A stretch of DNA of 6,484 nt from Methanocaldococcus jannaschii DSM 2661 (GTDB lineage: Archaea; AGJL01; Methanococci; Methanococcales; Methanocaldococcaceae). The stretch lies in the NCBI RefSeq assembly GCF_000091665.1, contig NC_001732.1:1-6484 (forward strand), in the 5' to 3' direction. The notes beneath the pieces are model-generated. The model saw only the letters and a program-made list of their open reading frames with translations. It did not search any database and was not told the origin of the DNA. Position numbers and translations under genes: made by a program. This document shows, piece by piece, positions 1 through 6,484 of this stretch (position 1 is its first letter; the number at the start of each line of letters is the position of its first letter).

Positions 1-177
1 TATACTCTCGTAATTTATATGTGCTATTTTTGAACTTAGATACCTTTAGGTATCACCATATAATAAATAAATTTACTTTAGCTCTCATCAAGTATGTGAA
101 TATACTGTTATTAACTCATGCATACCAGGAATAAATTTTAATTAATTTAGATATTAATCTCATTATAGGTGTTAAAA

Positions 178-348
178 ATGGATTATGAGAGCAAAAAAGT
201 TGATTATTTAGTTAATCCTAGCATAGAAAAACTAATCCAACTTTTAACTAGTGGAATTAACAACAGTGTTATAACCCTATTTACACATTGCAAGGTTTAT
301 TATGATGGGAGAGCAATTGGATTATCTTTTAAATATTGTCAAAAATGA
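178..348 (+). CDS. 56-aa ORF absent from the supplied track, with a NucS/EndoMS-N-terminal-like sequence; probably the 5' part of a frame-broken gene that continues in 302..1051
   Basis: ATG at 178 is preceded by AGGTG (167-171) at 6-nt spacing. It translates to MDYESKKVDYLVNPSIEKLIQLLTSGINNSVITLFTHCKVYYDGRAIGLSFKYCQK with stop TGA at 346-348. The C-x-V-x-Y-x-GR-A pattern recalls the NucS N-terminal beta-strand motif as I remember it. It overlaps the 302..1051 ORF in a different frame. Confidence 0.4.
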   Translation: MDYESKKVDYLVNPSIEKLIQLLTSGINNSVITLFTHCKVYYDGRAIGLSFKYCQK

Positions 349-1051
349 TAAAAAGTTTTTAGAAACTCTTAAAAACATGAAAATTGACGTAGATTCAGAT
401 GAAGAACTTAGTAAAATATTTTTTATAATAATAACATTCCCATTCTGGTTAAGATGTCATGATGATATCAAAAATGCCCTACGTCTAATAGACAAAATTA
501 CAAACAAGGGAAGTTTTACTAAAGTATTGGATAACTCAATGAAGGAATATCATGTATTCTATATTTATGATGTGGACAAACTATCTGACCTTATAGCTGA
601 AGAATTAAAAAGATTATACCTTATATGTAAATCAGAAGGAAAAAGTTATTATGAAAATATATTTTTCAGATTGGATAGGAAGTCAATATTAAAATTATTT
701 ATGAAAATATCCCCTTTCAAACAATTAGATGTTATTAAAGGAAAGCTCAAAAATCAATTAGATTTCTTTGAAGAATATTTCAATAATATTGAAAAAATTG
801 GTTATTTTTCAATAAGAATGGAAAATAGTCGTTATAATGAGCATATTAAATCACTTCATCCTAAATTAATAATATCATTGAGAGTAGATAAGGTGCATAT
901 ACGTTTAGAAGCTCAAATAGACTACTACAATATAAATAACGAAAATGAAGAAGCATATAAGAAAATTTTAGAACTGATGAAACTCAATTTACTCACAATA
1001 GGTTATAAAGCAGTTGAAAAATTCCTTGAGGAAATTTATGAAGAAGTTTAA
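302..1051 (+). CDS. hypothetical protein (249 aa as tracked); 5' end uncertain
   Basis: This is a long ORF with the same K/E/I/Y-rich composition as its neighbours. Only a weak AGGT (293-296) precedes ATG 302, and the frame is open back to 275. I recognised no catalytic or nucleotide-binding motif. It may be the downstream part of a gene that initiates at 178 (see findings). Confidence 0.6.
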   Translation: MMGEQLDYLLNIVKNDKKFLETLKNMKIDVDSDEELSKIFFIIITFPFWLRCHDDIKNALRLIDKITNKGSFTKVLDNSMKEYHVFYIYDVDKLSDLIAEELKRLYLICKSEGKSYYENIFFRLDRKSILKLFMKISPFKQLDVIKGKLKNQLDFFEEYFNNIEKIGYFSIRMENSRYNEHIKSLHPKLIISLRVDKVHIRLEAQIDYYNINNENEEAYKKILELMKLNLLTIGYKAVEKFLEEIYEEV

Positions 1052-1081
1052 CCAACTTCCAATATTGGTATAAAAATACTA

Positions 1082-1381
1082 TTATAACTTGCTTGCAATT
1101 TCTATTGCAGTTTTTAAATCCTCTATTGTCCTTTGGGAGAGGATATAATTATCCACACAAAATTTTAGATTCTCTTTTAATGATTTTTCTTGGTCTAACA
1201 AGGATAATCTTTGGATTATTCTTTTAATTACACCCTGATAATAATAAACTTCTGAATTTTTACTACTCTCCATTTTTAAAATAAGTTTTTTCAATTTGTA
1301 TATTGCTTCAATTGTTGGTAATTCTAAAAGTTCTTCAAAAGCTGTCATAATATCCCACCAAAATATTCTAAAGTTATTCAT
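1082..1381 (-). CDS. hypothetical small protein (99 aa, start trimmed from the 129-aa track ORF)
   Basis: The in-frame ATG at 1381-1379 overlaps the stop of the upstream 108-aa ORF, reading ATGAATAA on the minus strand. That 8-nt overlap is typical of translational coupling. The 30 codons upstream of it lie inside the 108-aa ORF and are Cys/Ser/Ile-rich junk-like sequence. An alternative start is ATG 1348, preceded by GGTGGG at about 7 nt, which would give 88 aa. I recognised no family. Confidence 0.55.
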
Positions 1382-1700
1382 CTGGGAATAGACACAAATT
1401 ACACTTGATAATCCACTTTTTATTCTTATCATCTGGATACACATCGATAATATTATGCTCATCATCAGCATACTCTAATCTTGAAGTCCATGGGAGTGTT
1501 TTTAGAGTGGAAATAAGAGCATTCAAAACATTCTTTCTAAAACTATCTTCACTTGAAGATTTTAACAAACTTTCCAAAGATTTTATAAATTCAACCAACT
1601 CCTCAATCTCTCCCCTCATAACCTCATCAAAAGTTAATTCTAAATCGCACTTTATAATCCATTCTCCAAAACCACCAACTTGAACCTTACAATCCCTCAT
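1374..1700 (-). CDS. hypothetical acidic small protein (108 aa) with related N- and C-terminal WIIKC segments
   Basis: ATG 1700 is preceded on the minus strand by GGGTGG (TTGTGGGTGGTTAA-ATG). By my count it has 22 acidic and 14 basic residues. [13 protein letters not shown] (1623-1661) and [13 protein letters not shown] (1377-1415) match at 9 of 13 residues. I recognised no family. Confidence 0.6.
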
Positions 1701-1886
1701 TTAACCACCCACAATTAGAATATAATTTAAGTATTCTCATAAGATTTTGTTAAAACTTCTTTCCTTATAATATAAATAGCATCTCCATCGTTATTCCAAA
1801 TAGCATATTTCTAAACTACTAACAATTAATATTAGGTAATGATACTTGAAGATGAGCGTTTTAAATATTTACCAAAACTCATAAAA

Positions 1887-1921
1887 ATGATAATTTCAAT
1901 TATCATAATTATAATTATCAT
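1887..1921. promoter_or_regulatory. operator-like dyad ATGATAATT-TC-AATTATCAT plus a third AATTATCAT half-site, just upstream of the ATPase start
   Basis: A 20-bp dyad with perfect 9-bp arms and a 2-nt spacer lies at 1887-1906. AATTATCAT recurs at 1913-1921, and the ATPase ATG is at 1934. The sequence is AT-only and low in complexity, so chance is not excluded. Confidence 0.25.
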
Positions 1922-1933
1922 TATGGGATTAGT

Positions 1934-3253
1934 ATGTTTGTGGATAGAGAAGAAGAACTAAAAGCATTAAATGAAAAGTTAGATAGTAACAACTTTGAAT
2001 TCATAGTTATTTATGGGAGAAGAAGAATAGGGAAGACAAAGTTGGCATTAAAAAGTGTAGAAAATAGGGAGCATATTTATTACTTAGCAGTTGAGGGAGA
2101 TAATTTAAAGCATTTTAAAAGATATGCTTCAAAGGTTGAACCAACAATTGAATATGCTAAAGAGGATTGGGAAGCATATTTTAACTTTTTAAAAGATAAA
2201 ATCATTATCATTGATGAGTTTCCAAACTTAATTAAAGAAAATCCTAATGTATTATCTCTATTCCAGAGAATTGTAGATATACATTTAAAAAATACAAAAA
2301 CAAAACTTATTATTCTTGGCTCATCAATATCCATGATGGGAGAGAAGGTCTTAAGTTATAAATCTCCTCTTTATGGGAGAAAAACTGGAGTTTTGAAGAT
2401 TAAACCATTGAAGTTTAAGCATTTAAAGGAATTTTTCCCAAAAGCTATTTGGGAAGAGTTGGTTGAAATTTATGGTTTTGCTGATGGTATTCCATACTAT
2501 CTTGAGAAGGTAAAACTTCCATTTTGGGATTACTTAGATAAAGAGATTAAGAGAGTTGATAGTTTTTTGAGATATGAGGTTGATTTCTTGATGAAGTATG
2601 AGTTTGAGGAGCCAACAACTTATAAAAAGATTCTTGAGGCAATAGCTTTTGGTAATCACACACTTGGAGAGATAAAGAATTACTTGGGCTTTAAGCATTC
2701 AGATTTAACACCATATTTAAAAAACTTGATTGAGGTTGAATTTATAGAGAGGCAAACTCCTATTACAGAAAGTGTAAAATCAAAAAAGGGGAGGTATTAC
2801 ATTAAAGATAATTTTATTGCTTTTTATTTTAGGTATATTTTTCCAAATTTATCTGCAATTGAAGAGGGGATTTTTGATATTGAGGAGATAAAGGCTGATT
2901 ATAATCAATATTTAGGATTTGTCTTTGAAAAAGTTGCTAAGGAGTTTTTAATTGAGCTGAATAAAATGAATAAATTACCATTTAAGTTTTTAAAGATTGG
3001 AAGATGGTGGCATAGGGGAGAAGAGATTGACTTAATTGCTTTAAATGATAATGATAAAAAAGCTTTATTTGTTGAGGTTAAATGGAAGGATTTGAAAGAT
3101 AGAGATGTTAAAAAGATATATAGGGATTTGTATAGAAAGTCAAAACTTGTTGGATTAGATGATTATGAAAAATATTATGCCATTGTTGGAAAGAAGATTG
3201 AGAGTAAAGAGAATGGAGATTGTTTATTATTTGATTTGGAGGATTTCTCATAA
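1934..3253 (+). CDS. AAA+ 'archaeal ATPase' family protein with wHTH and C-terminal DUF234-like PD-(D/E)xK module (439 aa)
   Basis: Walker A is GRRRIGKT (2015-2038) and Walker B is IIIIDEF (D94 at 2213). The segment LILGSSIS resembles sensor-1. A wHTH-like segment reads TLGEIKNYLGFKHSDLTPYLKNLIEVEFIER. The C-terminal EIDLIAL...ALFVEVKWK supplies D366 (3029), E381 (3074) and K383 (3080), a restriction-endonuclease-like D..ExK. The N-terminal FVDREEEL is typical of the multi-paralog Methanococcales/Thermococcales family. Confidence 0.9.
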   Translation: MFVDREEELKALNEKLDSNNFEFIVIYGRRRIGKTKLALKSVENREHIYYLAVEGDNLKHFKRYASKVEPTIEYAKEDWEAYFNFLKDKIIIIDEFPNLIKENPNVLSLFQRIVDIHLKNTKTKLIILGSSISMMGEKVLSYKSPLYGRKTGVLKIKPLKFKHLKEFFPKAIWEELVEIYGFADGIPYYLEKVKLPFWDYLDKEIKRVDSFLRYEVDFLMKYEFEEPTTYKKILEAIAFGNHTLGEIKNYLGFKHSDLTPYLKNLIEVEFIERQTPITESVKSKKGRYYIKDNFIAFYFRYIFPNLSAIEEGIFDIEEIKADYNQYLGFVFEKVAKEFLIELNKMNKLPFKFLKIGRWWHRGEEIDLIALNDNDKKALFVEVKWKDLKDRDVKKIYRDLYRKSKLVGLDDYEKYYAIVGKKIESKENGDCLLFDLEDFS

Positions 3254-3264
3254 AAGTTATTGGG

Positions 3265-3453
3265 GTGGAAATTATAGCATTATTGATTGAAGAAGGAATC
3301 ATAATAATAAAAGATAAAAAAGTTGCAGAGAGGTTTTTAAAAGATTTAGAATCATCACAAGGAATGGATTGGAAAGAAATTAGAGAAAGAGCAGAAAGAG
3401 CTAAGAAACAACTTGAAGAGGGGATTGAATGGGCAAAGAAGACGAAATTATAA
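3265..3453 (+). CDS. small charged hypothetical protein (62 aa, GTG start as tracked); possible antitoxin-like partner of the downstream pseudogene
   Basis: The ORF starts 11 nt after the ATPase stop and has a K/E-rich helical composition. Its 3' end is overlapped by 25 nt by the ATG (3429) of the downstream degraded gene. It has no well-spaced SD and a GTG start, so the start and even the reality of this gene are uncertain. Confidence 0.35.
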   Translation: MEIIALLIEEGIIIIKDKKVAERFLKDLESSQGMDWKEIRERAERAKKQLEEGIEWAKKTKL

Positions 3454-3723
3454 TCCTACTAAAAATATTATTAGAAGAATATGATGAAGAAAAAGTAAAA
3501 GCTTTATTAAACTCTTTTCTTGCCACAAAAATTTAGATGTTGAGAATTTTTTTTAAAGAATTCTGCAATATTATTTGAAAAATTAAATAAGAGCAGAATA
3601 TATCTAATTTTCAAAAGAGGGACTAATGATATTTTAGCATACTTCACTCTAACAATCTCTATCTTAAAAATAGTTGATGAAAAAATATCAAAAAAGACAT
3701 TAATTTTGTATAGGATAATTTAA
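3429..3723 (+). pseudogene. frameshifted, 3'-truncated remnant of a GNAT-acetyltransferase-like (TA-toxin-like) gene
   Basis: Three consecutive frames read MGKEDEIIILLKILLEEYDEEKVKALLNSF / SCHKNLDVENFF / LKNSAILFEKLNKSRIYLIFKRGTNDILAYFTLTISILKIVDEKISKKTLILYRII*. The frame breaks fall at the T4 run 3515-3518 and the T8 run 3547-3554, and adding one T at each restores the frame. The pattern F-x-C..(L)D.E.FL...A.....SR.YL....IL.YFTL matches the N-terminal half of GNAT toxins as I recall them. The acetyl-CoA motif (Q/R-x-x-G-x-G/A) is absent, so the gene is truncated. Confidence 0.45.
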
Positions 3724-3761
3724 GTTTAGAATTTAAAATTTATAAATTTTATAATTTAATT

Positions 3762-3787
3762 GTTAATTGACTTTGAAGTCAATTCAC
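3762..3787. repeat. 26-bp palindromic repeat, copy 1 (GTTAATTGACTTTGAAGTCAATTCAC)
   Basis: Read directly from the sequence. It differs from copy 3 at 2 of 26 positions. The TGA stop of the 116-aa minus-strand ORF (3784-3786) lies inside the arm. Confidence 0.9.
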
Positions 3788-4134
3788 CTTATCAATTTCT
3801 CATACTCTTTGTCAATGGCAGTTCTAAGTGCTTCCATCCAATTTTCTGAAAGTTTTATATATCTCCTCGGCCTATTTGCTGGAGCTTCCAATTTTCTTGT
3901 TTTTATTATACCCACTTCCTCCAAATAAGTAAAAACCCTCCTCCATTTTCTCAACACAAGAGTAGGATCTTCCTTCATCGCCTCAGCCAAGGCAATATTA
4001 CACATTTCCATAGGACCACACTTACAATAACCACTCTCAAAATGCCTCTCACAAGCAAAAAGAACTTTTTTAAATTCTTCTGAATGTTCAAGAACTGCAA
4101 TTAATCTAAATAATGTTCTAAGCTCTACACTCAT
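3784..4134 (-). CDS. small Cys/His-cluster protein with C-terminal winged-helix-like DNA-binding region (116 aa); candidate regulator
   Basis: The SD-like GGAGTG lies 5 nt before ATG 4134, and a TATA-like TTTTATAC lies about 27-34 nt upstream on the minus strand. The cluster C28-x2-H31-x5-C37-x-C39-x5-C45 spans 4000-4053. The segment RKWRRVFTYLEEVGIIKTRKLEAPANRPRRYIKLS looks like a recognition helix plus a basic wing. The gene is flanked on both sides by the 26-bp palindrome. Confidence 0.75.
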   Translation of the reverse strand: MSVELRTLFRLIAVLEHSEEFKKVLFACERHFESGYCKCGPMEMCNIALAEAMKEDPTLVLRKWRRVFTYLEEVGIIKTRKLEAPANRPRRYIKLSENWMEALRTAIDKEYEKLIR

Positions 4135-4176
4135 AATCCCACTCCTATAAAGATGCCAAGGTATAAAAGTCTATTA

Positions 4177-4202
4177 GTGAATTGACTTTAAAGTCAATTC
4201 AG
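4177..4202. repeat. 26-bp palindromic repeat, copy 2 (GTGAATTGACTTTAAAGTCAATTCAG); candidate operator
   Basis: The inner 24 bp (4178-4201) form a perfect palindrome. It sits 43 bp upstream of the 116-aa gene start, immediately upstream of a TATA-like element on the minus strand. Confidence 0.9.
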
Positions 4203-4278
4203 CATTATTATATAGTATATCCCTAATTGTTTATATTTCAAACGGAAAAATAAATATTTTGAAAATGAACAATAGCAT

Positions 4279-4419
4279 TTATTTTTCACATTTTTCATTA
4301 GATTCATCTTTTTTAATTGGTTTATCCAACATTTTAGGTATTAAAAGTGTAAGAACAAGAACTAACACTATATACACCAACATTGCAGTAAGAAACACTA
4401 ACAACCTTCCCTCAACCAT
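4279..4419 (-). CDS. 46-aa single-pass membrane peptide (ORF not in the supplied track)
   Basis: On the minus strand GGGAGGT is followed by 7 nt and then ATG 4419. The ORF translates to MVEGRLLVFLTAMLVYIVLVLVLTLLIPKMLDKPIKKDESNEKCEK with stop TAA at 4281-4279. It has a hydrophobic stretch of about 22 residues followed by a charged tail. T-rich tracts follow the stop. It lies between palindrome copies 3 and 2. Confidence 0.55.
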   Translation of the reverse strand: MVEGRLLVFLTAMLVYIVLVLVLTLLIPKMLDKPIKKDESNEKCEK

Positions 4420-4483
4420 TCTAATAACCTCCCAACAAACTAACTAATTTTTTATTCTAAAAAACTTATACTTAGATGCCATT

Positions 4484-4509
4484 GTGAATTGACTTTGAAA
4501 TCAATTCAC
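4484..4509. repeat. 26-bp palindromic repeat, copy 3 (GTGAATTGACTTTGAAATCAATTCAC)
   Basis: Read directly from the sequence. It lies 49 nt downstream of the nurA stop and 65 nt upstream of the 46-aa ORF start on the minus strand. Confidence 0.9.
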
Positions 4510-4538
4510 TCTCAAATTTGTATTCCAACAGTGACATG

Positions 4539-4553
4539 AAAAAGAAAATAAAC
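4539..4553 (-). terminator. oligo-T tract downstream of nurA (archaeal-type terminator candidate)
   Basis: The minus strand reads GTTTATTTTCTTTTT immediately after the nurA TGA stop (4560-4558). Archaeal RNA polymerase terminates at oligo-T runs. Confidence 0.4.
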
Positions 4554-4557
4554 TATA

Positions 4558-5796
4558 TCATTCTCCCAAAACTTCCCTCCCACTCTGGAAAAATAAGCTA
4601 AAATCCCTATTTTTCTCTGATATGTATTTTATCATGAATAAAATTTGCTTTTTAAATTCTTTTTTACTGATTTTCGCCTTATTATGAGCATCTTTCAAAT
4701 ACCTTGGATAACCAAGTTTAGAGTATGGAATAAGCAAACTTATAACTTCTTCAATTGATTTTTTGTTAGTTCTTGGAACTTCAAGTGCTAATATTGGACT
4801 GCTCTCGGCAAATCTAACATAAGTTTTAGGAATCATCTCAAAAGGATTTTCCCTGATAACTTCTAAAAATTTGAAATAATCTCCAAACACATCACAAATC
4901 TTGTTAATGTGCCTCCTACTCCTTTTTTTATTATAACAATCTTCCAATTTAAGAGTAGTGTATCCCCTCCCTCTAAATATTTGATTTAGAAGTGTAGCAT
5001 CAAGTAGGATATCAACATTTATGTTGTTTTCCTTTAATTTTTCTGTAATAATTGAATTCTCAAAATTTTTAGCTATGAATGTACAATCATACTCTAACAA
5101 TCTATTTAAAGAGTGTAGCAATTCTATATACTCAAAATATACTCCCCAACATGCAATTTCCAATCTAGAATTGAGAATATTTGCTGCAAATAACTCTTCC
5201 CTAATATCTTCAACATATTCAGAATACGTACTATCAAACTTTTGAAAAATCTTTATTGCTAAGAGAGTATTATCGTAAATATTCCCATCTAAATTCTCCA
5301 AAACTTCGTCCCAAAAATTATCCAATGATTTTATAAACTTCCAACCCAAATCTTCAGCTAAATCTGGATAAACAGTTAGAGGGTTAGTATCTCCACTTAA
5401 AAGTGGTGGCATTATTAAAGCCCCTGACAAAGTTCCATCTAAAAGGATTAAATCAACATTCTTGCTAACAAGTGTTGCAAGCCTATACTCTAAAGTCATC
5501 ATTAATCTTCTAACTCTATCCTCTTCTTTAAAAAATGGTAGAACACCCAATTCAAACATTCCCTTTTCAATATTCTTTCCAATAGCATAGGATGAGAGGC
5601 CATAAACAATACCACTACAGAATTCAACCTTCCCCCTACTACCATCTACCCCACATAATACCCCTTCAACACCTTTTGGCAACTCATTCCACACTACTTC
5701 ATCATTTATAATATTTCCAATACTGCTTATATTTTTAAACTCCCAATCCACAAAATTGTAAATTATATCCAAATGATTTTTACTAATAATAAACAT
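4558..5796 (-). CDS. nurA: NurA-family 5'-3' nuclease (412 aa from ATG 5796)
   Basis: The NurA-domain hallmarks are GVDGS (D54 of the tracked ORF, 5646-5644), the acidic E in MMTLEYRLA, and LILLDGTLSG (D123, 5439-5437). The gene lies immediately downstream of herA. I moved the start from the tracked 5805, which is a GTG lying inside the SD GGGGTGAT (5808-5801), to ATG 5796, which sits 4 nt after that SD. Confidence 0.85.
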   Translation of the reverse strand: MFIISKNHLDIIYNFVDWEFKNISSIGNIINDEVVWNELPKGVEGVLCGVDGSRGKVEFCSGIVYGLSSYAIGKNIEKGMFELGVLPFFKEEDRVRRLMMTLEYRLATLVSKNVDLILLDGTLSGALIMPPLLSGDTNPLTVYPDLAEDLGWKFIKSLDNFWDEVLENLDGNIYDNTLLAIKIFQKFDSTYSEYVEDIREELFAANILNSRLEIACWGVYFEYIELLHSLNRLLEYDCTFIAKNFENSIITEKLKENNINVDILLDATLLNQIFRGRGYTTLKLEDCYNKKRSRRHINKICDVFGDYFKFLEVIRENPFEMIPKTYVRFAESSPILALEVPRTNKKSIEEVISLLIPYSKLGYPRYLKDAHNKAKISKKEFKKQILFMIKYISEKNRDFSLFFQSGREVLGE

Positions 5797-5828
5797 TTTT
5801 ATCACCCCTAAACGTAAATTAAAGGTTT

Positions 5829-6484
5829 TTAAATTTTTAAATTTTTAAGACCATCTTCTCCTCCTAAAACTCCATCATATTTTTTAATTTTAACCAATGC
5901 TGGAAGTGGGAGTGAAGAACCAACTACTATTGCCTCTCCAGTTGATAATTGTGGTAAATCTTGAAGTAAATCCTCTCCAACATTCTCGGAACTCTCTAAA
6001 ATATATTTTTGGTCTGTTGGCTCTACAATTCTTAAAATTATCTTAGTATTCATTTGAGATAAGACTGTAGGATTCAATTCTTTAGGCCTCTGACTTACTA
6101 AACCCAATCCAACTCCAAATTTTCTTCCTTCTTTTGCAATTCTATTAATCCAATAACCAGACCTATCCTTCAAATTCTTTGCTGCAAAAAGGTGTGCTTC
6201 TTCTATAATTACTAATGTTGGTTTTTCAAGTGCTTTAATTTCAACTATCTCATCATGGACTGATTTAATTCTCTCTTTTAAAACTCTTTTTAAGAATTCT
6301 CCTACAATTGTTATTGCCTCCTCATCCTCAATCTTTTGAAGTGGGAGAACATTTATTTTATCACTCTTAATGTCAAACATTCCCTCATTCTCTCCCAAAA
6401 TATTTTTATTTTTGTTAATAAACCATCTCAACTTTTCAATAACTCTATTTATTGACATTTCATCATCTTTTTTTACAGTTTTAG
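5829..6484 (-). CDS. herA: HerA-type (DUF87/FtsK-like) hexameric ATPase, C-terminal part; the 5' end lies beyond the window
   Basis: Walker B is LVIIEEAH (E86 at 6203-6201). The stretch RIAKEGRKFGVGLGLVSQRP...VLSQMNTKIILRI...LSTGEAIVVG is the conserved HerA C-terminal core. The frame stays open upstream of the tracked Met 6458 to the window end (..KTVKKDDE-MSINR..), so the Walker A part is outside the window. The stop at 5829 is 32 nt before the nurA ATG. Confidence 0.85.
   Translation of the reverse strand, partial: KTVKKDDEMSINRVIEKLRWFINKNKNILGENEGMFDIKSDKINVLPLQKIEDEEAITIVGEFLKRVLKERIKSVHDEIVEIKALEKPTLVIIEEAHLFAAKNLKDRSGYWINRIAKEGRKFGVGLGLVSQRPKELNPTVLSQMNTKIILRIVEPTDQKYILESSENVGEDLLQDLPQLSTGEAIVVGSSLPLPALVKIKKYDGVLGGEDGLKNLKI

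Follow-up and report, generated by a model that had tools for sequence, protein, structure and literature searches.

HerA-NurA is usually described as an essential end-resection partner of Mre11-Rad50 in archaea. HerA-family ATPases paired with an effector, as in SIR2-HerA and DUF4297-HerA, also form bacterial anti-phage systems. Stand-alone nurA-herA paralogue pairs, some of them CRISPR-associated, occur in Thermoproteales and other archaea (PMC3396285, PMC3973734), and in Thermococcus kodakarensis HerA-NurA degrades the two strands of a DNA duplex (dsDNA) from any end; the 2026 structural study of this complex questioned the repair role and proposed an antiviral role (PMC12977600). The locus described here is a herA-nurA pair in a stretch of 6,484 nt from Methanocaldococcus jannaschii DSM 2661 (NC_001732.1, positions 1 to 6,484 of the forward strand). 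This whole stretch is called the window, and window coordinates refer to its full length. The pair is very probably an accessory, horizontally mobile module and not a housekeeping operon.

One of the closest described systems is the canonical operon of T. kodakarensis (PDB 9x1l), Pyrococcus furiosus and Sulfolobus solfataricus (HerA 4d2i). The present pair belongs to the same protein families, has the same domain order and motifs, finds its best PDB and NCBIfam matches among the canonical proteins and keeps the HAS segment and tyrosine that contact NurA. It differs from the canonical operon in that it has no mre11 or rad50, is plasmid-borne, has variable flanks and an AbrB-like gene upstream, and has a faster-evolving HAS domain. 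The Cas HerA and Cas NurA of Thermoproteales are likewise an extra co-evolving pair without mre11/rad50 among immunity genes; however, the pair in the window is euryarchaeal and plasmid-borne, has herA before nurA in one operon, and within 10 kb is accompanied neither by a CRISPR array nor by cas genes or csm6.

SIR2-HerA and DUF4297-HerA also have a gene for a HerA hexameric ATPase adjoining a degradative effector in defence-island-like surroundings, but the effector here is NurA and not SIR2 or a Cap4-like nuclease, and the likeness of the HerA proteins is at the family level. RecBCD/AddAB would share the proposed logic of an end-dependent, ATP-driven helicase-nuclease beside restriction systems, from which circular self DNA would be safe. 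The likeness is a functional analogy only, as the proteins are unrelated, and Chi-like control is not known here. Since stand-alone and CRISPR-linked pairs and the antiviral proposal have already been published, the pair is not a new kind of system; it is distinguished by its plasmid location, its AbrB-type partner, its separate euryarchaeal lineage and its fast-evolving HAS domain.

The herA-nurA gene pair

The window is AT-rich (GC 25-33% along its length). Four open reading frames (ORFs) lie on its minus strand from 6484 down to 3784: the 3' part of herA, nurA, and two small genes for products of 46 aa and 116 aa. The herA frame is open from the window edge at 6484 to a TAA stop at 5831-5829, and this part (5829..6484) holds the C-terminal 218 codons of a 519-aa HerA, with Pfam matches to HerA_C and DUF87. 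The spacer between herA and nurA (5797..5828) is exactly 32 nt long and contains AGGGGTGAT, a Shine-Dalgarno (SD) sequence with a strong anti-SD match, four nt before the ATG of nurA. This ATG at 5796 is favoured as the start by alignment with 14 homologues. A GTG at 5805, which would give a product of 415 aa, was considered as an alternative start; it falls within the SD, and the homologue alignment favours the ATG. The preliminary description had noted that herA stops 32 nt before an SD-led nurA with nothing in between, and this is confirmed by the Pfam HerA and NurA matches, the 32-nt gap, the SD and the start at 5796.

The pair was compared with those of related loci, of which 19 (L001-L018 and L066) form one clade. 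Relatives with 77-83% HerA identity are referred to as ECE, after the extrachromosomal element of M. jannaschii, and those with 49-58% as ECE2, a deeper subclade that includes L012-L016. The complete herA gene is found at L001:2803-4362 (identical contigs, assembled from sequencing runs) and encodes HAS-barrel, DUF87 and HerA_C domains. The remainder of the gene at its 5' end, together with the promoter and a divergent AbrB-like gene, lies beyond window position 6484. The Walker B motif IIEEAH and the SQRP motif are within the window part, the Walker A motif GAGKSNT is outside, and all three align with those of 39 other archaeal HerAs.

The best PDB matches of the HerA protein are the HerAs of T. 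kodakarensis (6e-72) and S. solfataricus (1.5e-63), and its identity to canonical HerA is 35-40%. The HerAs of SIR2-HerA and DUF4297-HerA in the PDB match it at 1e-31 to 1e-20. The analogy with these two anti-phage systems, which had been drawn before, is therefore a functional one only, since by sequence the HerA is much nearer to the canonical proteins. The NCBIfam model for canonical HerA gives 359 bits for this HerA, compared with 557-847 for operon-linked controls and a cut-off of 970. This equivalog cut-off alone does not discriminate because true operon-linked controls also miss it (847 and 557). The HerA_antiphage models of NCBIfam give 119-135 bits against cut-offs of 800-850, as they do for any archaeal HerA.

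The nurA gene (4558..5796, minus strand) encodes an RNase-H-like nuclease of 412 aa with a Pfam NurA match of 1e-47. The catalytic residues D51, E103, D120 and H371 are invariant columns in an alignment of 15 sequences. The protein aligns to the NurAs of T. kodakarensis (1e-24) and P. furiosus (1.5e-20), and the alignment takes in the Asp that is mutated in PDB variant 9x1n. It is 25-32% identical to canonical NurAs, and the NurA_Pyro model of NCBIfam gives 151 bits, compared with 486 for the control, which likewise misses the cut-off of 650. Judged by these matches, the herA-nurA gene pair is a strong family match and not a chance feature, and the window could well hold the distal half of a two-gene herA-nurA operon on the large ECE of an M. 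jannaschii-type host.

In the T. kodakarensis complex the HerA residues that touch NurA are W76, L77, D91 and Y95, all in the HAS segment (PMC12977600). The ECE HerA retains this alpha1/loop segment of the HAS domain and the tyrosine (Y80, equivalent to T. kodakarensis Y95). A HerA6-NurA2 complex is thus predicted from the retained contact segment, and the intact herA and nurA genes are likely to form an active motor-nuclease complex.

In this clade the HAS domain changes more quickly than the remainder of HerA, with N/C identity ratios mostly of 0.56-0.81 (one ECE2 pair has 0.94) compared with 0.78-1.06 in the canonical and solo clades. Among close relatives the HAS-barrel (HerA residues 1-150; L001:2803-3252) is 61-69% identical, against 85-91% for the rest. 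The NurAs of L001 and L010 are 98% identical, and the HAS domains of the same two loci are 61% identical. A charge swap at the HerA-NurA interface (T. kodakarensis D91-R401, ECE K74-D369) was considered as covariation and was rejected as evidence because it is present in the window and L017 and not in L010 or the ECE2 subclade.

The start of herA in M. jannaschii differs from that of its relatives. At L001:2803-2811, ATA stands in place of the ATG at which the relatives start, and another ATG, two codons upstream and in direct contact with an SD-like GGGTG, is the called start. For this reason herA translation may have a weakened or unusual initiation. This altered start, with a called start that overlaps the SD, would fit a decaying remnant among gene debris that has no current function, as would the neighbouring ATPase, which is split into pieces of 209 and 114 aa, and the 46-aa peptide ORF, which is frameshifted in L010. 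However, the HerA and NurA ORFs are full length in every lineage of the clade, the catalytic residues are invariant, and the promoter and AbrB-like gene are conserved across 43-57% protein divergence. It is very improbable that the pair is such a remnant.

A lineage separate from the mre11/rad50-linked operon

In the clade, herA directly adjoins nurA in the same orientation in 19/19 loci, and the tight junction of 13-36 nt is common to all related loci. The HerA and NurA trees are congruent. A tblastn map showed no mre11 or rad50 between or beside herA and nurA in the window or the 19 related loci; the Mre11 and Rad50 queries had no match in L001-L018 or L066, whereas each of them matched about 35 control loci. 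In species-representative genomes, the 43 NurAs nearest to this one belong to Thermococcus and Archaeoglobaceae and are 25-32% identical. About 35 of the 43 have enough upstream sequence, and all of these show herA-mre11-rad50-nurA, or rad50-nurA where the contig is cut. The canonical herA-mre11-rad50-nurA operon is also present on the chromosomes of Methanocaldococcus infernus and one Methanocaldococcus metagenome-assembled genome (MAG).

Neighbour-joining trees with midpoint rooting were built from numpy-based distances for 40 HerA and 34 NurA sequences. In the HerA tree the ECE and ECE2 sequences form one clade with a bootstrap value of 100 and a long stem, and the canonical and MJ1429-type clades are grouped apart from it with a value of 92.5. 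In the NurA tree the same clade again has a bootstrap value of 100 and a long stem, and the operon-linked euryarchaeal NurAs fall in other clades, to which it is joined by a node with a value of 84 and outside which it lies. Both proteins therefore fall outside the mre11/rad50-linked clades, and the canonical grouping that had been named as the result which would count against an accessory module was not found.

The clade is also very rare. When 1.84 billion representative proteins were searched exhaustively with phmmer, 65 matches were obtained, and only two of these are full-length members of the clade. A genome scan with the NurA alignment, which relies on short patterns and did not return the M. 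jannaschii source genome, found canonical operons only and no clade members in other species-representative genomes. No relatives were found among viral contigs in a scan of these. A megablast of the whole window against PLSDB, which apparently does not cover archaeal plasmids, gave no match, and neither did a literature search on MJECL locus tags. Ten weaker NurA representatives were sampled and belong to Asgard archaea, Altiarchaeales and Palaeococcus, with no Methanococcales among the ten. On these comparisons the ECE/ECE2 pair is a small separate lineage that was never found with mre11/rad50.

A housekeeping herA-nurA pair could be found out of context simply by vertical inheritance with mre11 and rad50 elsewhere in the genome. 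Mre11 and Rad50 genes are unlinked from herA and nurA in many mesophilic archaea, and the catalytic motifs of the pair are intact, as such an explanation would have it. The pair is nevertheless on an extrachromosomal element, its flanks are different in each relative, it forms a separate long-stemmed clade in both trees, and the genus carries canonical operons of another lineage. This explanation is largely refuted and is highly unlikely. The suggestion in the preliminary description that the pair is a paralogous accessory module is instead borne out by the ECE location, the rare separate clade, the canonical operons on other Methanocaldococcus chromosomes and the changing, defence-rich flanks. 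The universal conservation of syntenic position that would have spoken against it is not seen, since the flanks differ between relatives and the clade is rare.

Plasmid location and flanking genes

The window matches the large ECE of M. jannaschii (58.4 kb; the longest contig in the cluster of its NurA has 58,407 bp). An ORF of 249 aa at 302-1051 matches Pfam MJECL01_C, and the GC content of 29% is in line with this location. The assignment to the ECE is strong but indirect.

The flanks of the pair differ among L001, L010, L017, L066 and L012. In four independent settings they are nevertheless rich in defence and nuclease genes, including type I and MmeI restriction-modification (R-M) systems, McrBC, OLD/AbiL-like ATPases and NucS. 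On the M. jannaschii ECE the flanks hold a type I R-M system and an AAA_15 protein of 707 aa that weakly matches an OLD-type Toprim. L010 has PadR, histone, integrase, NERD-UvrD, NucS and MmeI-type R-M genes in its flanks; L017 has McrBC, a nuclease of the metallo-beta-lactamase (MBL) fold, a staphylococcal nuclease (SNase), NucS and an MmeI-type R-M system; and L066 has a PIN/AF2212 toxin-antitoxin pair. No cas Pfam families or CRISPR arrays were found within 10 kb (Pfam on the flanks; TRF on L001, L010 and L017), and an Rfam scan gave only a sub-threshold CRISPR-DR45 match (E = 0.81) and nothing meaningful. The flanks of the three contexts L001, L010 and L017 have no SIR2 or DUF4297 genes.

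The flanks also bear on a role in DNA transfer, in which HerA-NurA would make single-stranded DNA for a conjugation-like export or import of the plasmid, comparable to Ced/Ted. HerA belongs to the FtsK/VirB4-type superfamily and has generic matches to the CedD and VirB4 models, and the feeding of archaeal DNA transfer by HerA-NurA has already been proposed (PMC9905601). However, no pilus, VirB, Ced or Ted genes were found in flanks of 15-21 kb in three contexts, and the CedD score of 108 bits is no better than that of any other archaeal HerA. A role as a transfer helper is improbable.

HerA and NurA on the host chromosome

The chromosomal HerA of the jannaschii group appears to be of a different type. 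In M. bathoardescens, a close relative of M. jannaschii, HerA has 500 aa and stands alone after genes for tetratricopeptide repeat (TPR) proteins. It is taken as the orthologue of MJ1429 because it lies near a gene with MJ1433-family domains. The same TPR-HerA arrangement is found in Methanotorris. The MJ1429-type HerA lacks about 30 HAS residues, which make up the alpha1/loop segment by which HerA binds NurA in the complex of T. kodakarensis.

When the canonical Methanocaldococcus NurA was the query, the only orthologues were that of M. infernus and, after it, those of Thermococcales, with none from the jannaschii group. The canonical 550-aa HerA was likewise found in M. infernus and one MAG and was not seen in the jannaschii group. 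Since neither a canonical NurA nor a HerA of the NurA type came to light in this group, M. jannaschii may have no HerA-NurA pair other than that of the plasmid. The possibility that this is the only such pair in the genome had been put forward as a point against an accessory module. That part may hold; the accompanying expectations of universal synteny and canonical grouping did not.

This result favours the possibility that the plasmid supplies ordinary repair or recombination, with HerA-NurA processing ends for the recombination-dependent replication or multimers of the plasmid itself or for the Mre11-Rad50 of the host, which in the jannaschii group would have lost HerA-NurA partners of its own. 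The absence of canonical orthologues in the jannaschii group, the TPR-linked, solitary chromosomal HerA without the NurA-docking segment, and the sequence of the pair, which is closest to HerA and NurA annotated as repair proteins, all point in this direction. On the other side are the rarity of the clade in the phmmer search, the fact that the pair never co-occurs with mre11/rad50, and flanks that hold defence genes and not replication or recombination genes. The genome scan found no clade member in other Methanocaldococcus species representatives; these species therefore live without it, which would be unexpected for an essential repair function. A repair or recombination role for the plasmid pair is possible but doubtful.

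As a separate observation, the chromosomal MJ1429-type HerA of Methanococcales always follows genes for TPR proteins (L009:6249-9503, L071:4294-7554), and TPR-HerA has the look of a third type of HerA system that is as yet uncharacterised. A long-branch HerA (P0138) at L069:2379-4421, from the same vent metagenomes, adjoins a PF01877 "RNA_binding" gene and not nurA, and is another case of HerA paired with a partner.

Proposed role of the pair

A role in defence or in conflict between elements is the other candidate for the plasmid pair. The proposed mechanism follows the complexes solved for T. kodakarensis and Sulfolobus. A hexamer of HerA would engage a free end of double-stranded DNA and, with ATP, pump the duplex by way of its HAS-barrel face to a docked dimer of NurA, which would cut both strands. 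Linear invader DNA, or fragments left by the neighbouring restriction systems, would thereby be destroyed, as by RecBCD after restriction in bacteria. The circular plasmid and the chromosome would be spared because the HerA-NurA machine needs DNA ends.

Several points weigh against a defence role or limit the proposal as a whole. The pair is linked to defence through its genomic context, and guilt by association is weak on a plasmid, since a plasmid has many nucleases and ATPases that serve its own upkeep. The sequences are nearer to HerA and NurA annotated as repair proteins than to the proven anti-phage HerAs. The PADLOC matches of HerA are partial and at the generic family level, NurA is not among the PADLOC models, and the C-terminal part of HerA alone is matched, with 99 bits, by the model "HerA Type III coevolved". 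The trees are neighbour-joining trees that were midpoint-rooted without a crenarchaeal or bacterial outgroup, and the ECE assignment is, as stated above, indirect. The absence of a chromosomal NurA in M. jannaschii rests on indirect evidence from related genomes. Moreover, the chromosome of the jannaschii group is seemingly without NurA and a NurA-competent HerA; ordinary end resection for the chromosomal Mre11-Rad50 could therefore come from the plasmid pair.

Taken together, an anti-phage role is plausible from the genomic context, and the biological role of the pair may, tentatively, be defence or inter-element conflict. The fuller proposal is more speculative: that the only NurA and NurA-competent HerA of M. 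jannaschii are plasmid-borne in a defence island, with Mre11-Rad50 and a TPR-linked HerA without the docking element left on the chromosome, and act as a mobile, end-dependent, DNA-destroying module of immunity or plasmid competition, NurA being the effector of a HerA motor, is conceivable but, taken as a whole, rather unlikely. The DNA-transfer, housekeeping and remnant explanations are less likely than either defence or repair.

AbrB-like partner gene and herA promoter

A gene of the DNA-binding AbrB/MazE type lies upstream of herA, outside the window, and is transcribed in the opposite direction. Its product has 67-82 aa across the clade; the L001 copy is at 2451-2660 on the minus strand and encodes 69 aa, with an intergenic region at L001:2661-2802. 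Between ECE and ECE2 the AbrB-like protein is 62% identical, compared with 57% for HerA and 43% for NurA. The shared herA promoter region is conserved and contains CGAAAA, which resembles a transcription factor B recognition element (BRE), a TATATATA box, ACGCAGA and the SD AGGTGAT; the operon has a BRE/TATA promoter of its own. The AbrB-like gene is replaced only in L010 and L011, by a PadR-like gene. Judging from this conservation, the AbrB-like gene is the real conserved third gene of the module. Its product probably represses the herA-nurA operon.

Sequences and small genes downstream of nurA

An oligo-T tract, TTTATTTTCTTTTT, at 4539..4552 on the minus strand starts 6 nt after the nurA stop and is kept in L010, L017 and L066. 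It probably acts as an archaeal terminator for the herA-nurA transcript. A palindrome of 22 bp, GAATTGAYTTYRAARTCAATTC, follows in three copies. Copy 1 (4486..4507) is 51 nt downstream of the nurA stop, copy 2 (4179..4200) is 79 nt downstream of the 46-aa peptide gene and precedes the 116-aa gene by about 45 nt, and copy 3 (3764..3785) overlaps the stop codon of the 116-aa gene. The three copies are thus 0-80 nt after the stops of nurA, the 46-aa gene and the 116-aa gene. There are six matches on two strands, compared with 0 expected from 200 shuffles, and the palindrome is predicted to form an RNA hairpin with a stem of 10-11 bp. Further copies are found at L001:9-28, L010:6723/8493 and L017:16020, and on related plasmids the palindrome also follows unrelated genes, namely genes for a histone and for a 90-aa product. 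The chromosomal loci examined had no copy.

The palindrome may act as a terminator or as a hairpin at the 3' end, bind a protein, or mark the boundary of a cassette. The idea that it is an operator for the 116-aa protein was set aside because all three window copies are just downstream of stops and other copies follow unrelated genes. A terminator or a cassette boundary would fit its placement better.

The 46-aa gene (4279..4419, minus strand) lies between palindrome copies 1 and 2 and encodes a single-pass membrane peptide with a hydrophobic core of 23 residues and no family match in Pfam or PADLOC. Its ORF is kept in L066 at 74% aa identity, and a 1-nt deletion in L010 extends the peptide to 74 aa. 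The cassette of about 307 nt that carries it (window 4201-4485, compared with L017:12871-12935) is absent in L017 exactly between two direct copies of the palindrome, which suggests recombination between the repeats or a cassette-like insertion. The 46-aa gene is probably a dispensable cassette and not part of the core module.

The 116-aa gene (3784..4134, minus strand) follows nurA in L001, L010, L017 and L066 with 86-99% identity, and with 86% where NurA has 57%. It probably has a TATA-like element of its own, and in a metagenome scan its product turned up in this context only. The protein has a Cys/His cluster (C28, H31, C37, C39, C45) and a winged-helix-like C-terminal region. Its AlphaFold2 (AF2) model, with a predicted local distance difference test (pLDDT) score of 72, has a helix-helix-strand-strand order, and the best 50 Foldseek matches in the PDB are nearly all MarR-type or other winged helices, none of them significant (E = 0.076 for the best). 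Matches to Pfam helix-turn-helix (HTH) families are below cut-off, and one source names a member of the cluster "TFIIE alpha". A winged-helix nature of the modelled protein is plausible but unproven. Membership of the 116-aa gene in the herA-nurA module is doubtful.

A membrane peptide gene and a winged-helix regulator gene had been said to follow nurA. Both ORFs are present, but the label of winged-helix regulator is weakly supported. The four-gene unit that had been suggested is not supported: the oligo-T tract and a palindrome come after nurA, the peptide cassette is lost in L017 and frameshifted in L010, and both small genes are absent from the ECE2 loci L012-L016. The two genes are probably separately transcribed neighbours and not obligatory subunits.

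Other features of the window and related loci

The split AAA_15 ATPase of the ECE has its best matches to AbiLi, PDC-M38A and AriA, and a DUF3226 gene adjoins it (L001:1029-2033 and 301-1026 for this stretch, both on the minus strand). The split ATPase and the DUF3226 gene look like a disrupted AbiL/PARIS-like system. On the plus strand of the window, 1934-3253 encodes a 439-aa ATPase_2/DUF234 protein that matches the PADLOC candidate defence family PDC-S27 (7e-43). This ATPase gene travels with the pair in L001 and L010 and is replaced in L017. Its start is overlapped by an ORF of 40 aa with a run of nine Ile (1839-1961). Two overlapping ORFs of 129 and 108 aa without family matches occupy 1082-1700 on the minus strand; the gene boundaries here are uncertain because relatives have genes of 108 and 90 aa at this place.

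In the ECE2 locus L012, about 1.4 kb after nurA (L012:5100-6550) has no called genes. It contains at least three copies of a different palindrome, ATGCCnTTGTAAWTTACAAnGGCAT, together with repeated AAAAGTATTTAAAGATTATAG motifs, and could be an origin-like or regulatory region.

Significance

Even if the herA-nurA pair of the ECE proves to be ordinary, homology alone is not enough to label its genes "DNA double-strand break repair". The plasmid HerA-NurA lineage is a clean natural system in which the question of repair or defence could be addressed, and M. jannaschii is genetically tractable. If the only NurA of M. jannaschii is indeed plasmid-borne, the pair would be an archaeal counterpart of SIR2-HerA and of RecBCD acting after restriction, and it would provide a test case for the claim that HerA-NurA of archaea is chiefly antiviral.

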